From the IMG/VR virus record IMGVR_UViG_3300027996_003878: a DNA stretch of 64,000 nt. One strand, written 5' to 3'. Under the pieces are notes generated by a model. The model made no database searches. It was not told the origin of the DNA and saw nothing but the letters and a program-made list of their open reading frames with translations. Made by a program: the position numbers and the translations under genes. This stretch comes from a virus. Taxonomy: Duplodnaviria; Caudoviricetes. Below are positions 3,965-44,420 of the stretch, piece by piece (the first letter of the stretch is position 1; each line of letters starts with the position of its first letter).

Positions 3965-4423
3965 TTATTGAATTTTGATTTTCATAAAGGATTTTGTTAG
4001 TTTAATTAGTTTAACCAAGCTTCTTTCCAAATCATCAAACAAAACAAAACCCTCCTCTTTATCACTGTGCCAGCAACGTAAACCATTGATATCTTTAATT
4101 ACATCGTCACAATGATTTAATAAATTCAAAAAGATAGCTTCAGCTGCTTCTTGAGAGCCTTCAATTTTGGGTAGAATCTTTTCAAAGCAAGCAAGCTCAT
4201 GTGCGTGTGTGAATTCGTGCTTTACTCGCTCAATCTTATCTTCAAGAAAAGACAAGCGGTTATGTGTGTCTTTGAATGATGCCCTAAGAGTAGATTCATT
4301 TTTGTAATCTAAATGACTTACATCATCCTTGTAAATATTCAAAAAATGATTTAGTTCAGAATGATGTTCTTTGAAGTTAATAACATTATTCATAATTAAC
4401 CTGCCATTACCTTGTCTTTCCAA
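3965..4423 (-). CDS. hypothetical protein
   Basis: ORF; true start probably the internal MNNVINF. Confidence 0.65.
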   Translation of the reverse strand: MERQGNGRLIMNNVINFKEHHSELNHFLNIYKDDVSHLDYKNESTLRASFKDTHNRLSFLEDKIERVKHEFTHAHELACFEKILPKIEGSQEAAEAIFLNLLNHCDDVIKDINGLRCWHSDKEEGFVLFDDLERSLVKLIKLTKSFMKIKIQ

Positions 4424-38098: not shown

Positions 38099-40996
38099 AT
38101 GAATGATTACAAAAAAGATAGCGCTGCGATTCAGTTAAAGAAAAAAATCTCTGCATCAAGAAAGCATGCGATAGAGCTTCATGCAGTAAGTCCCTATAAC
38201 TTTACAAAAGTTGCAGACATCATTGATAGCCTGTCAAAGGCATGGAATTGGATAACAGATCCAGAATTTAGATTGGATTTAAAAAAACTAAATGTAAAAA
38301 CTGTAAAAACTGAGAAGTTAATTAAAGAATTAAAAGATAAAACCAATACTTTACTCAGAGCAATTGATGCTGGCAATTTAGTCGGCTATGACAGCGCCCT
38401 TAAAGAGGTTAAACGTCTATCTACTGAACTAAACCGAGCGACATCTGAGGCCCAATCTATACAAAGAAATATGGGCGAAACGGTTATTGATGAAGTAGAG
38501 CAAAGGTACACAGAAACAAAACCAGTTGATAAGGCTGAACCAAAAAAACCAAAACCAAAGACAAAGCCAAAGACAACGCCAAAGACAAAGGCAAGAGCGC
38601 CCTCAGCGCCGCCTAAGGAGCGCGGGGAGGAGCGCGGGGAGGAGAACGGCGAGAGCATCACCCAAGAGCCAAAGAAGCCCTCAGAGGCGCCAGAGCCACC
38701 TGCAAAGACGGATAAGGAGTCTCCCCAAGAGGAGCAAGATAGCGCAAGTTTAATTCAAGCTATAGATCGTCAAATTGAATCGCTAAAAGAGCCAGAGATA
38801 GTACCTGAAACTAAGCAAAAAATAACAAGAAATTTAAGAAAGAAAATATTAGGACTTTATGCGTTAACTCAAAGAGGTGAGCGTGGCGAAGCTACGGCTG
38901 CTGAAAACGTTCTAAAGACTATCTTGCAAAAGATTAAAACAGAAGATCAGGACATACCACTTCTCGGAAGTTCGATTCCATCTTATGAAGACTTTTTAAA
39001 CCGAGCGCCTTTTTACTTATCGAAAATGCCCGCTCCAGAAAGTGATATCGAAGGAAAGCCTGAGTCCAAAGAAGAGGCCAAAAAGGAGCCGATCAAAAAA
39101 AGAAGAATCGTTCAGCTGCCCATGCCGCCGGAAGAAGCGACAAAAGAGCTTGAGCTGGTGGAAGAAAAAACAATTAAAGAGAACTCTAATGATGGTAATG
39201 TCGAGCTTATAGAGGATGCCTTGAGCAATATTAGTGTTGCCCAGCCGGAAGGTATGTTTGATAATTTTGCAAGCGGACTTAGCGGTAAAGGTTTAAAAGG
39301 AATTAGAGTTATTGGAAATAAACTTATAGGAGACGCAGAAGATCCAAATACGAAAGATCCTATGAGTAGAGGTAAAGATTTAGATGATTACGAAGATTTT
39401 TCAAACAAATCAAGCGGCATTGGATTTGACTACATACTATACTCACCGAAAGGCAACGTAAATAAATTCAATGTTGTGCCATTTTCAAAAAAAGCTATAA
39501 AAATATTGGGAGAGCTGAAAGGACTGGAGAAACTTCAACCATCGGCGGCTTTGGTCATTGAAAAAGAGTTACAGAAAAAAAGCCCAACAAAAGTATCAGA
39601 AAAACCGTCTCAAGAAAAAGAAACCGCTTTTGATGAAGGCAATTACGAAGAACCCGAAGAAGTTGTATTAAAAGACAAAAGTAAAAAAGAAAAAGCTCTT
39701 ACAGAAAAGATAAAGCAAGAATTTGATGACAAAGGCTTAGATGTTCCAGATTGGTTGCTAGATTCTATGAGAATGAGTTCAAAAGTCACAAAGCCATACT
39801 TCCCAACGACTTATAACTTAAATTATTTGATTTTTAAAGCTGAAAAAGATTTTTTTACAGATAAAATACAGAGTGAATTTGATGTCAACAATGCAGACAT
39901 GCCGTCACTGCTTGAACCACTTAACCCAGGCACATCCGTTAACACCAAGGCTAAAGAAAGCGAGTCAGAGGACACTCAAGACGAAGATTCGGCGGAAGAG
40001 TTAAGTGAGGGAAAAGTAAGAAAACAAATGAGAGGCTTGTATTTTAGCAAAGGTAAGACAAAGCAAGATTTTTCAACTACAAAAGAGGATATCAGAAAAC
40101 TTCGTGATGTCGGCATCACTGATGCTGACATTTATAATTTTAAAAAAATACCAGCAAAATCATCGCCTGCATCGGTTCCATATGCAAAAAGATCGGGTGA
40201 AATATATAAATGGGTAGCAAAAACAAAAGCAACAATGTCGGATGCGGAACTTGAGCTAATATTAGATAATGTAAAATCAGAAATATTAAAAGATTCAGAA
40301 AAATATCCAGAATTTAAAGGCCTTAATAGAGAAGCTTTAGATAAGCAGGGCTGGCTGTCTCATTATATAATTAAATCTATAAGAGAAGATCTTCCGATTC
40401 ATTGGAAAGGTAAAGATCAAAACATTGTAAGCGCACAATGGATTTATGGTCTAGCTAATATCTTTTTAAAATTGGCAATGCCCAGATTAAAAGTTGCAGG
40501 CGACAAAAATAAGGCGTCCGAAGCCGATTATATGTATCACGTTACCTACTACAAGGATCTTGGATCCATAGCAGACTCGGGATTGAACCCAGGGGGCGGC
40601 TCCGCTATGGGAAAGGGAGGGCACTCCGGACATAGCCGGGGGCGCACCTTTATGACCGAAAAGGACGGCCTTTCCTTCTGGTTCGGCAGAATGGAAGAAC
40701 ACGCGGAGGCCGACAGCGACGATCCGCTGGGCGAAGGATACGTTCCGGTCTCACTACGGTTCCCGAAGCCCAAGGGCCTGGAGGAGGACGAGGCCGGAAC
40801 CTCCGACGCAATGGCAGAATCTTACTTTCTCGAAGGTTCGGTTCCTCCTGGCGAGGTCGAACTCTGGGATGGTAATTCCTGGATCGCGCTAACCTCCTGG
40901 GAGAGCGTGAACCCGGAGGAATCCTTCGACGTGGACGAGTACGACGGGGAGAAATGGCACATCTTCAAGGGTGATAACCCTCTTTATCCCGGTTAG
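38099..40996 (+). CDS. large multidomain protein: K/P-rich linker, DUF2786-like hairpin, C-terminal ART-like domain
   Basis: KKILGLYAL.QRGERGEATAAENVL; YMYHVTY...I..SGL.P...FMT. Confidence 0.75.
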   Translation: MNDYKKDSAAIQLKKKISASRKHAIELHAVSPYNFTKVADIIDSLSKAWNWITDPEFRLDLKKLNVKTVKTEKLIKELKDKTNTLLRAIDAGNLVGYDSALKEVKRLSTELNRATSEAQSIQRNMGETVIDEVEQRYTETKPVDKAEPKKPKPKTKPKTTPKTKARAPSAPPKERGEERGEENGESITQEPKKPSEAPEPPAKTDKESPQEEQDSASLIQAIDRQIESLKEPEIVPETKQKITRNLRKKILGLYALTQRGERGEATAAENVLKTILQKIKTEDQDIPLLGSSIPSYEDFLNRAPFYLSKMPAPESDIEGKPESKEEAKKEPIKKRRIVQLPMPPEEATKELELVEEKTIKENSNDGNVELIEDALSNISVAQPEGMFDNFASGLSGKGLKGIRVIGNKLIGDAEDPNTKDPMSRGKDLDDYEDFSNKSSGIGFDYILYSPKGNVNKFNVVPFSKKAIKILGELKGLEKLQPSAALVIEKELQKKSPTKVSEKPSQEKETAFDEGNYEEPEEVVLKDKSKKEKALTEKIKQEFDDKGLDVPDWLLDSMRMSSKVTKPYFPTTYNLNYLIFKAEKDFFTDKIQSEFDVNNADMPSLLEPLNPGTSVNTKAKESESEDTQDEDSAEELSEGKVRKQMRGLYFSKGKTKQDFSTTKEDIRKLRDVGITDADIYNFKKIPAKSSPASVPYAKRSGEIYKWVAKTKATMSDAELELILDNVKSEILKDSEKYPEFKGLNREALDKQGWLSHYIIKSIREDLPIHWKGKDQNIVSAQWIYGLANIFLKLAMPRLKVAGDKNKASEADYMYHVTYYKDLGSIADSGLNPGGGSAMGKGGHSGHSRGRTFMTEKDGLSFWFGRMEEHAEADSDDPLGEGYVPVSLRFPKPKGLEEDEAGTSDAMAESYFLEGSVPPGEVELWDGNSWIALTSWESVNPEESFDVDEYDGEKWHIFKGDNPLYPG

Positions 40997-41074
40997 TCTC
41001 GGGTCGCTTATCGCGGATTCAGGGCATAGCTGATATTTTATGAAGCTGACAAACTAAAGTGAAGGGAATATACA

Positions 41075-42970: not shown

Positions 42971-43448
42971 TCAGCCATTTTCTTTCTCCTCACAGGTACA
43001 TTCTTGGTCTGGATAACCGGCATCGTGATGAGCACAGTTATACCACTTTGAGTTATCAAATTGATAATGCCCGTCAAGAACTTTCATTTCTAAATGCAGG
43101 TCTTCATAGTTCTCAACATAACCACCGCTAGTTCGTCCATCCAGTCGGTTCAGAAGGTTGATTGATGCTTCGCCTGCCCATAGGTCATCTTCGTTCTTCT
43201 GAGGAAAAGCATTACCTTCAACAAAATCAATAATAATGCTGTCTAAATCTCTAATCTCATCTGCTGCTCTGCGACAAAGAGATTTCAAGCGAATGATTTC
43301 TTTTTTTAACTCTCGCTGATAATCAAGTCGCTCTTGTGGAACACCAGTATCAAGAAAATTATGAACTGATAACTCTCGTTGTAGTTCTGTATTCTCTTTT
43401 TTTGAGTTCTTCTACTTGCTTTTTGAGTTCTTTGATTTCGTTAGTCAT
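42971..43448 (-). pseudogene. hypothetical protein split by a frameshift in an A7 run
   Basis: MTNEIKELKKQVEELKK joins ENTELQRELSV...LKSLCRR if one A is removed at 43397-43403. Confidence 0.6.
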
Positions 43449-43580
43449 TCTCTTCTCTCTCAAAAAGGTGTTAGGCAACCAGACCACCTAACTGACTGTT
43501 TCCAGTCCCACCCGCAGATTAGCAATCATGGAGTTTATCCCTCTCCCGCTTCATCCTTACAATCGGGGTAACTTCATTTG

Positions 43581-43697
43581 AAGGAGTGGCAGGATTTTCA
43601 CCTGCAAGCGACCAAGTGTTCCCTTGTAAGATTCTTATTCCTTGGTCCGGGTCGTGTATCATCTCAGTAGAACCCTGCGTAATGCCGCCTCACTCCT
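43581..43697 (-). ncRNA. tRNA-like cloverleaf RNA with enlarged arms
   Basis: AGGAGTG/CACTCCT, GCG/CGC, GGGT/ACCC, GACCAAG/CTTGGTC, GCAGG-TGAAAAT-CCTGC. Confidence 0.6.
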
Positions 43698-43716
43698 AGA
43701 ATCAATATAAGTCGCT

Positions 43717-43971
43717 TTATTTTTCTTTCAAGCCTTTTCGGCAAAGGTAATTTTTATGAAAGTCGAAATCATCTGAATAATCTTTTTCTATTGAGTTAGT
43801 ACTTGGGGTGAAAAAAAATACGGGGGGAAATAAATCACCCTTATCAAAACTTCTAGCTGAAAAATTTTCGATATTATTAATATATCTTTCACTTCTTTGT
43901 TTATGCCACGGATCAGTTCTTGGTAAAGTTGCAAAAAAAATTAAAGACATATATATAAAAAATATTTTCAT
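43717..43971 (-). CDS. hypothetical protein with signal-like N-terminus
   Basis: 84-aa ORF. Confidence 0.5.
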   Translation of the reverse strand: MKIFFIYMSLIFFATLPRTDPWHKQRSERYINNIENFSARSFDKGDLFPPVFFFTPSTNSIEKDYSDDFDFHKNYLCRKGLKEK

Positions 43972-43997
43972 GCAAATATATTTTTAAATGCGTAATT

Positions 43998-44420
43998 TTA
44001 AAATATATACTCCCAGTTAAGATAAACATTTGGAGACAAACCAAATGTTTTTTGAAACTTACTAACGCTTGATGGATATTCGAAGTCCTTGAAGTTACAA
44101 ACCATCAATAACTCAATTTCTTTTTTTAATTTATTTTCACAAATATTTGCAGGTGCAGAGGTTATCTCAAACGAATAAGGAAAAGCCGCCCTCTGATCAA
44201 GCACATCACTTATTACATTCGCATTACTTAAGATAGCAGAGATTTCAATTTTAAAATCATTAAGACGAAAAGAGGGGTACGTAGAGGAGATATAATCAGA
44301 AATAATTTTGTAAATTTTATCTAAATTAATTAGATCGTTAGAAATTAACGTATCACCTTTAATGGTAAAATTTATGCAATCGACTTCTAGTCGCATTCTG
44401 TAATGTACGTCATCAAACAT
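43998..44420 (-). CDS. hypothetical protein
   Basis: 140-aa ORF. Confidence 0.6.
   Translation of the reverse strand: MFDDVHYRMRLEVDCINFTIKGDTLISNDLINLDKIYKIISDYISSTYPSFRLNDFKIEISAILSNANVISDVLDQRAAFPYSFEITSAPANICENKLKKEIELLMVCNFKDFEYPSSVSKFQKTFGLSPNVYLNWEYIF

Follow-up and report, generated by a model that had tools for sequence, protein, structure and literature searches.

Organization of the locus

The stretch of DNA analysed here, hereafter the window, is 64,000 nt long and belongs to a virus of the Caudoviricetes (Duplodnaviria; IMG/VR record IMGVR_UViG_3300027996_003878). On its minus strand, a sigma-70-type promoter is followed by a tRNA-shaped module (D1), a second structured leader domain (D2) and the start of a gene. 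These features, together with the parts of D1, are given below in the direction of transcription; pairs with compensatory changes were counted in an alignment described in the next section.

43704-43731, minus strand: sigma-70-type promoter; -35 element TTGAAA (43731-43726), 16-nt spacer, -10 element TATATT (43709-43704); 10 of 12 positions match
43581-43697, minus strand: D1, the whole tRNA-shaped module; 117 nt including the U at the discriminator position (43581); score 144.6 bits with covariance model (CM) R1
43691-43697, minus strand: acceptor-like stem of D1, 5' strand AGGAGUG; pairs with 43582-43588; compensatory changes at 6 of 7 pairs (73 sequences)
43677-43688, minus strand: D-like hairpin GCG-GCAUUA-CGC; 3-bp stem, the middle C-G pair being U-A in 7 sequences
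43649-43675, minus strand: anticodon-position arm; 5-bp stem GGGUU/GACCC, 17-nt loop
43661-43666, minus strand: pseudoknot strand a, UGAGAU, within the anticodon-position loop
43610-43647, minus strand: extra arm (variable position); 7-bp stem GACCAAG/CUUGGUC, 24-nt loop; compensatory changes at 5 of 7 stem pairs
43627-43632, minus strand: pseudoknot strand b, AUCUUA, within the extra-arm loop; pairs with 43661-43666
43589-43605, minus strand: T-like arm GCAGG-UGAAAAU-CCUGC; compensatory changes at 2 of 5 pairs
43582-43588, minus strand: acceptor-like stem of D1, 3' strand CACUCCU; abuts the T stem directly
43462-43580, minus strand: D2, a separate module usually found without D1; hairpin CCCCG/CGGG with a 42-nt insert, hairpin GACUG-GAAA-CAGUC, hairpin at 43492-43470, U run at 43466-43462
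43359-43448, minus strand: beginning of the downstream gene (MTNEIKELKK...); the U run of D2 is followed at once by its Shine-Dalgarno sequence

The -10 element of the promoter ends 6 nt before D1. A promoter matching at 9 or more of the 12 positions is present in 28 of the 43 D1-D2 copies with enough upstream sequence, and there the -10 element ends between 5 and 9 nt (mode 7) before D1. The region is richer in GC than its flanks, as a reading made from the sequence alone had stated (49.5% in 43500-43699 against 26-29% upstream); the GC content of the D1 neighbourhood is 26-33%. In a genome of about 33% GC, another part of the window, 40500-41000, reaches 54-62%; it lies inside the 3'-terminal part of a 974-aa ORF. 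The same reading had placed the cloverleaf in a gap free of ORFs. This needs qualifying: a 47-aa ORF (43519-43662, minus strand) overlaps D1, though many homologues have ACG or ACA in place of its ATG. As a protein gene, this ORF was discarded on account of its poorly conserved start codon.

The GC-rich block is made of two separable modules, D1 and D2, which are found together, apart or alone. D2 is widespread (L051-L067). It comprises, in order, a AAUGAAGUUACCC hairpin, in which the 42-nt insert is present or absent, a second, short hairpin, a third whose G/U-rich loop is conserved, and the U run. Most often it occurs by itself, where an early transcript begins, downstream of a near-consensus TTGACA-17-TATAAT promoter; the genes that follow are many and unrelated. 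Its GNRA hairpin covaries (GACUG/CAGUC to GAGCA/UGCUC). Since a 5' UCAAA sequence is able to base-pair with UUUGA in the U run, the apparent terminator of D2 may be a closing helix. A 14-bit match of the Rfam family Flavo-1 in D2 was dismissed as noise.

The direct succession of U run and Shine-Dalgarno sequence leaves the downstream gene without a promoter of its own. In the window, its reading frame is shifted after a run of seven A residues near 43397-43403; in relatives and in RNA-library contigs, six A residues are present and the frame, about 223-237 aa long, is uninterrupted. The shift is explained by slippage, by a fault in the assembly or by the gene being a pseudogene. Two relatives (L062 and L064) carry the same gene behind D2 alone, so D1 is dispensable for it.

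RNA libraries from four separate studies (sponge, sediment, salt-marsh and aquatic samples) yielded contigs that cover D1 and D2 (43462-43698). Transcription of both modules is therefore likely, as far as it can be judged from assembled contigs, which may contain DNA and show no ends. The coverage stops at 43698 because the relatives differ upstream, and this limit does not represent an observed start. A single adapter-joined RNA contig ends at 43463, within the U run, which is a weak hint of a 3' end.

D1 folds into a cloverleaf kept by selection

Folding of the D1 sequence by itself gave the same four-way junction as minimum free energy structure (-36.3 kcal/mol) and as centroid (z = -2.34; 3 of 200 shuffled sequences folded equally well). 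The helices named in the sequence-only reading could all be located on the minus strand (43697-43581), within this junction. Two details required correction. The arm at the anticodon position is there, with a loop of 17 nt, but its stem has 5 bp (GGGUU/GACCC) instead of the GGGT/ACCC proposed. Secondly, the TAAG/CTTA hairpin thought to be nested in the extra arm is not supported, as its CUUA pairs instead with UGAG(A) of the anticodon-position loop to form the pseudoknot described below. The spacing is that of a tRNA: a 7-bp acceptor stem, a 2-nt linker, a 3-bp D stem, a 1-nt linker and a 5-bp anticodon stem, continued by a long extra arm and by a 5-bp T stem stacked on the acceptor. Stem lengths and linkers match those of tRNA to the nucleotide, which bears out the tRNA-like shape initially claimed.

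Covariation, which had been put forward as a check of the structure, proved strong. RNAalifold applied to 20 homologues predicted the same cloverleaf; in this set 97.7% of the cells were paired and 8 pairs showed compensatory changes. With 73 distinct homologues, pairing was 98.2% and compensatory changes affected 14 of the 27 pairs. In the latter alignment the covariation score was 0.248, against 0.129 for shuffled alignments (0/500), and controls in which the structure was slid scored 0.10 or less. The stem at the anticodon position is invariant in the alignment sets because the search patterns required it; in a divergent copy (L022/L060), compensatory changes are seen both in this stem (CCGUU/GACGG in L060) and in the D stem (GCC/GGC).

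Conservation extends to the loops. The flanks of the anticodon-position loop, CUAC and AUAYAC, are retained in divergent copies, while being prescribed by the search patterns in the remaining ones; the length of this loop varies from 8 nt, in a degenerate copy (L028), to 38 nt. In the extra-arm loop, pseudoknot strand b is bordered by the purine-rich blocks GGAAUAAGA and GGAAUAC, and the two GGAAUA blocks are conserved though they lie outside every search pattern. The T-like loop retains U as its first base (tRNA position 54) and AA at positions 58-59; it reads UGAAAAU in most copies and has the canonical sequence UUCAAAU in a subset. The D loop is GCAUUA or GUAUUA, or else ACAGCA and others, and both D-loop and T-loop sequences differ between subfamilies. 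Position +1 is A or U, not G, and CCA is encoded in no copy.

Altogether, D1 is real, and more than 70 variants of its sequence show that selection maintains the folded RNA: compensation maintains 14 of 27 pairs and the pseudoknot, and loop blocks are conserved across subfamilies whose stems share only about 60-70% of their sequence.

A pseudoknot joins the anticodon-position and extra-arm loops

The oversized loop at the anticodon position is connected to the extra-arm loop by a pseudoknot of 5-6 bp, in which the five bases following CUAC pair with five bases of the extra-arm loop. Support comes from five sequence classes that covary:

UGAGA/UCUUA: main type, which includes the window
U(G/A)GCA/AGCUA: L152 type
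UAACU/AGUUA: L070
CAAGC/GCUUG: L060
CGAGA/UCUAG: L114

All five positions are paired in 37 of 74 sequences, compared to 1.6% of shuffled loops. A sixth pair (columns 38-67) is always formed, as C-G in 10 cases, U-G in 8 and U-A in 2. With 5-6 bases of its 17-nt loop engaged in this way, and with no call from either ARAGORN or the Rfam tRNA model (RF00005), D1 has no decodable anticodon, in agreement with the initial reading. One role considered there, that of a decoy for anticodon nucleases or synthetases, becomes less obvious, since the "anticodon" loop is locked in the pseudoknot with the extra-arm loop.

Distribution of D1

Marine viral and metagenome contigs yielded 99 matches to the D1 model, corresponding to 73 distinct homologues. 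These were collected from IMG/VR, by exact-word, protein-anchored and three pattern scans, and from one scan of metagenome contigs; the exact-word scan of IMG/VR found one relative, in another gene context. The family CM detects a single D1 copy in the window, and contigs generally carry one or two copies, even when they are 230-312 kb long. At L028:246-345 (minus strand), on a contig labelled as a giant-virus MAG, D1 is degenerate: its loop has 8 nt (CUACUGAG) and its 3' half is unrelated.

A search with the Rfam 15 families produced no match to D1 at the gathering threshold, nor at E <= 10 on positions 43200-44100. ARAGORN reported only Thr, Leu and Lys tRNAs in the window and called neither D1 nor its homologues. 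Among 185,579 prokaryote genomes, neither of two pattern scans turned up a match, an absence that holds at the stringency of the patterns, and blastn with a 281-nt region found no match among sequenced phages and plasmids. In the literature searched, no description matched a tRNA-like leader, a tmRNA insert or a tRNA mimic of jumbo phages, nor was a tRNA-shaped domain embedded in tmRNA found described; a catalogue of about 8,500 candidate structured RNAs from IMG/VR (PMC10690425) could contain the motif under a number. D1 very probably represents a family that Rfam 15 lacks: structured, self-contained RNA modules carried by uncultured marine phages, of which many are jumbo phages.

Relation to tRNAs and other known RNAs

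When the family CM was run on the window, all three genuine tRNAs were among the 14 best matches (13.8, 10.1 and 6.4 bits), the Thr tRNA ranking second. In the tRNA region of phage T4, class II tRNAs came first (Ser, 25.6 bits; Leu, 17.9 bits), followed in third place by rnaC (15.9 bits), and phage tRNA-Leu genes score about 25 bits. Geometry, this ranking and the subset of copies with a canonical T loop together suggest that D1 likely descends from a class II (long-arm) tRNA. With tRNA-Ser and tRNA-Leu, D1 shares the lengths of stems and linkers, the long helical extra arm, the 7-nt T loop, U54, A58 and the G53-C61 pair. It differs from them in its loop of 17-38 nt that presents no anticodon, in the absence of GG from the D loop, in a T loop that is mostly non-canonical, in an extra-arm loop of 21-24 nt pseudoknotted to the anticodon-position loop, and in the lack of an encoded CCA. 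Neither the set of nucleotides that build the tRNA elbow (G18 G19; T54 Psi55 C56) nor an anticodon loop of 7 nt that has U33 and leaves the anticodon free was found in D1.

The tmRNA model (RF00023) has no match in the window. D1 is a passenger in the tmRNA genes of other phages and is not itself a tmRNA.

RNAs C and D of phage T4 (species 1 and 2 RNA) are like D1 in being phage-encoded, 119-139 nt long, partly tRNA-like, and located in a tRNA gene cluster or at its end; rnaC has a canonical T arm. As for homology, the only match found is the generic one of 15.9 bits to the tRNA-like 3' part of rnaC, and there is none to rnaD. The cross-match with rnaC rests on generic acceptor, T-arm and extra-arm features; the bodies of the two RNAs differ and no sequence relationship was seen. 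In contrast to D1, no such pseudoknot is known in the T4 RNAs, nor is any copy of them known within tmRNA genes or mRNA leaders.

Non-decoding copies of the acceptor/T-arm part of tRNA are also found in YrlA, in the tRNA-like domain of tmRNA, in mascRNA and in the 3' tRNA-like structures of plant viruses. In YrlA, the ends of the RNA make the Ro60-binding stem rather than an acceptor stem. Both YrlA (PMC4201824) and mascRNA (PMC11693755) are handled by tRNA enzymes. Unlike these mimics, D1 has no G3:U70 pair, and no Rfam family of these types matches it. The proposal that D1 might be a Y/Yrl-like RNA is not supported, given the different topology and the lack of an Rfam match. No gene for a TROVE-domain (Ro60) protein was detected among the ten flanking ORFs scanned.

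The promoter/stem-loop cassettes (PeSLs) of T4-type phages are, by their description, simple motifs of a few tens of bases, made of a promoter and a terminator. Compared to PeSLs so described, D1 is a pseudoknotted cloverleaf of 117 nt, under selection at the RNA level and present also without a promoter in tmRNA genes and tRNA arrays. The likeness is that these cassettes (PMC2839356, PMC4122927) are short, conserved and non-coding, are tied to early promoters, precede unrelated genes and mark recombination joints in hyperplastic regions. D1 belongs neither to the class II tRNAs, nor to the group of T4 RNAs C and D, nor to the YrlA-type mimics.

Genetic contexts of D1

Seventy-five distinct contexts of D1 were sorted into classes:

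D1 followed by D2, the arrangement of the window: 44 of 75
D1 followed directly by a U run, with a small gene next: 6 of 75
D1 inside the loop of the first D2 hairpin: 3 of 75
D1 inside phage tmRNA genes: 5 of 75
D1 in tRNA arrays, on the strand of the tRNAs and with its own hairpin after D1: 6 of 75
Other contexts, several of them beside tRNA genes (L095, L070, L089, L122): 11 of 75

One further copy takes the place of a D2 hairpin. The genes found downstream of D1 are mutually unrelated and are of at least 11 kinds. Occurrence in tRNA arrays, in tmRNA genes and in the leaders of early genes identifies D1 as a self-contained module.

Within the arrays, D1 stands 11 nt after a tRNA-Asn gene or follows an ORF for a small acidic lipoprotein; in L089, it begins 11 nt past the CCA end of tRNA-Asn. 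Location in a tRNA cluster, in the same orientation as the tRNAs, is seen in one D1 subfamily (L084, L089, L136, L101, L115, L151, L070). In the window the tRNA genes lie 28-33 kb away. The small ORFs directly upstream of D1 in two of the arrays (L084:1373-1543 and L115:2168-2320, both on the minus strand) specify products of 50-56 aa that resemble acidic lipoproteins, with a signal peptide containing Cys and a tail rich in D, E and T.

The tmRNA genes that bear D1 (L114, L126, L144, L100 and L117) exceed the Rfam threshold, with scores of 57-104 bits, and D1 replaces a small hairpin seen in a related tmRNA devoid of D1. One-piece phage tmRNA genes were observed at L114:3793-4282, L126:375-850, L144:39-608, L100:10687-11174 and L023:1998-2392, with a tag of about ANNNY.Y..VALAA. 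In several of them (476-570 nt), D1 sits in a hairpin loop of the pseudoknot-rich 3' domain; the insertion causes ARAGORN to misread the tag of L114.

The tmRNA helix that hosts D1 (AAUGG.UACCCUA ... UAGGUGG; L114, about 4004-4021 and 4143-4150) resembles the first hairpin of D2 (AAUGAAGUUACCCCG ... CGGGUGGG; window 43558-43572), and the AUAGU sequence at its junction is the same as in leaders that have D1 within the loop of the first D2 hairpin. Homology of D2 to the pseudoknot region of tmRNA was considered and is not established, the similarity consisting of a short common motif (nhmmer E of about 0.01 in a tiny database). A common origin of the two helices, suggested by the resemblance of their sequences, is only a lead.

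Other copies have the appearance of recombination products. At L153:600-912, a promoter and D1 are followed by about 135 nt ending in the T arm, the 3' acceptor strand and the CCA of a tmRNA, and no 5' part of a tmRNA was found there. This chimera probably arose by recombination between two D1 copies. At L001:4180-4211 (minus strand), a tRNA 5' half, made up of the acceptor strand, the D arm and one strand of the anticodon stem, precedes D1 by 11 nt, and there is no 3' half in the vicinity; D1 is flanked there by the 8-nt repeat CAAAUGAA, which looks like a recombination scar. The L153 chimera and the tRNA half of L001 suggest that D1 may also serve as a recombination joint.

Possible roles of D1

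All contexts share two properties, a highly expressed carrier transcript and a module closed by its own stem. For this reason we tentatively favour, at something short of an even chance, the view that D1 is a stable small RNA, derived from a tRNA and unable to decode, which is either excised from its carrier or terminated on it; function and processing are both inferred. An autonomous D1 would ride on a strong early promoter as in the window, on tRNA arrays, on tmRNA genes or on the structured leader D2. Being closed by its own 7-bp stem, it could sit harmlessly in a loop of another RNA, leaving that RNA undisturbed. The stack of acceptor and T arm is the part that tRNA end-processing enzymes recognise, and RNase P on the 5' side and RNase Z, RNase E or a similar enzyme on the 3' side would thus define the ends of D1 and release it; alternatively, its end might be set by a nearby terminator. 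The surface that binds a putative partner in trans would be the lower half, which holds the pseudoknot and the conserved bases.

We counted in favour of autonomy the spread over varied contexts, the use of the tRNA strand in arrays and the presence of only one or two copies per contig. The structure and its covariation, the tRNA geometry, the closely placed strong promoter, the relatives whose gene has D2 alone and the RNA-library contigs were also counted for this view. A further idea of the initial reading, that of an RNase P/Z processing signal, is indirectly backed by the copies placed 11 nt after a tRNA in arrays and by those within tmRNA genes. Counted against processing were the D loop without G18/G19 and the T loop that is variable and mostly non-canonical, because the elbow contacted by RNase P and by the CCA-adding enzyme may then not form. 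The A or U at +1 and the lack of an encoded CCA point the same way, as does the fact that D1 is mostly the physical 5' end of an mRNA, where a role in cis fits equally well. Moreover, excision from a tmRNA would split that tmRNA. This last point can be turned round: D1 might form a new functional class, a portable RNA of tRNA shape that is excised, or excises itself, from any carrier, converting one-piece phage tmRNAs into two-piece ones and uncapping early mRNAs, after which the pseudoknotted half would act in trans on a host translation factor or on an anti-phage factor, as a tRNA-mimic effector and not a relic. We regard this bolder scenario as unlikely.

The main rival to the small-RNA view is that D1 stays attached as an accessory domain acting in cis, where it would shield early mRNAs, tmRNAs or array precursors from decay that depends on the 5' end, or bring a protein to them, for instance RNA polymerase, the ribosome or a tRNA-binding factor. 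Transcripts would begin 0-3 nt before D1 in the 28 of 43 D1-D2 copies with a promoter, and the downstream gene lacks a promoter of its own; furthermore, D1 occupies three positions relative to D2 as well as a hairpin loop of tmRNA, as peripheral domains of larger RNAs often do. However, such a role does not account for the free-standing copies in tRNA arrays, placed after a tRNA or a small ORF and provided with their own hairpin. Leaders with D2 only serve the same genes in relatives, D1 is limited to one or two copies per genome whereas D2-type leaders are more numerous, and a mere 5' shield has no need for conserved loop sequences or a pseudoknot. A cis-acting domain thus seems somewhat unlikely, while remaining the strongest competitor.

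D1 could also be a new self-cleaving or processing ribozyme, whose four-way junction and pseudoknot would form an active site cutting the carrier, for instance to give mRNAs with a 5'-OH or two-piece tmRNAs. Small self-cleaving ribozymes (twister, pistol, hatchet) are compact, pseudoknotted and promiscuous as to context. D1 fits this pattern by its compact fold, by the conserved unpaired nucleotides clustered around the pseudoknot and by its varied genetic contexts, phage tRNA regions included; yet a ribozyme would leave the exact tRNA spacing unexplained, and no Rfam ribozyme family matched. We consider this improbable. Less probable still is a decaying tRNA gene or a functionless, selfish hitch-hiker spread by recombination among phage genomes, as the chimera of L153, the tRNA half of L001 and the degenerate copy of L028 might suggest: compensatory evolution at 14 of 27 pairs and in the pseudoknot, along with loops conserved across subfamilies, makes a functionless relic unlikely.

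The position in 5' leaders, the complex pseudoknotted architecture and the U run directly after the closing stem in six contexts are what would be expected of a riboswitch aptamer governing a downstream terminator-like hairpin or U run. The unrelated nature of the downstream genes (at least 11 kinds) and the copies in tmRNA genes and tRNA arrays, locations that offer a switch no target, make a riboswitch very improbable and any gene-specific regulation in cis unlikely. Finally, a working decoder tRNA (for example of Ser type, with a residual loop CU-ACU-GA once small insertions are removed) or a 47-aa protein gene is barely conceivable: despite the class II shape, the 8-nt loop of L028 (CUACUGAG) and the ORF at 43519-43662, neither ARAGORN nor the Rfam tRNA model makes a call, loop insertions of 10 nt are not known to be removed by any bacterial mechanism, the pseudoknot takes up the loop bases, and the start codon of the ORF is lost in many copies.

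Implications

The conserved loop blocks and the pseudoknot of D1 point to a specific partner. By its presence at the 5' ends of mRNAs, within a leader, in tmRNA genes and in tRNA arrays, D1 offers a set of natural "domain-swap experiments", and its occurrence inside tmRNA prompts one to ask whether the tmRNAs concerned exist in split form. If D1 is a processed tRNA mimic, as we tentatively favour, it would provide a handle on how phages use the tRNA-processing enzymes of the host to make effectors other than tRNAs; if it acts in cis, it would be a 5' leader element of a novel kind. In both cases, D1 is a candidate for a new Rfam family, so far found only in uncultured marine phages.

Phage genomes carry tRNAs and a few enigmatic tRNA-like stable RNAs. 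Among the latter, T4 RNAs C and D have remained without a known function after 50 years. The D1 family is better defined than these RNAs, by a deep alignment, strong covariation and a defined pseudoknot. In our folding analysis, T4 rnaC (L050; T4 70908-71046) folded very stably (z = -4.6) and rnaD was unremarkable (z = -0.8).
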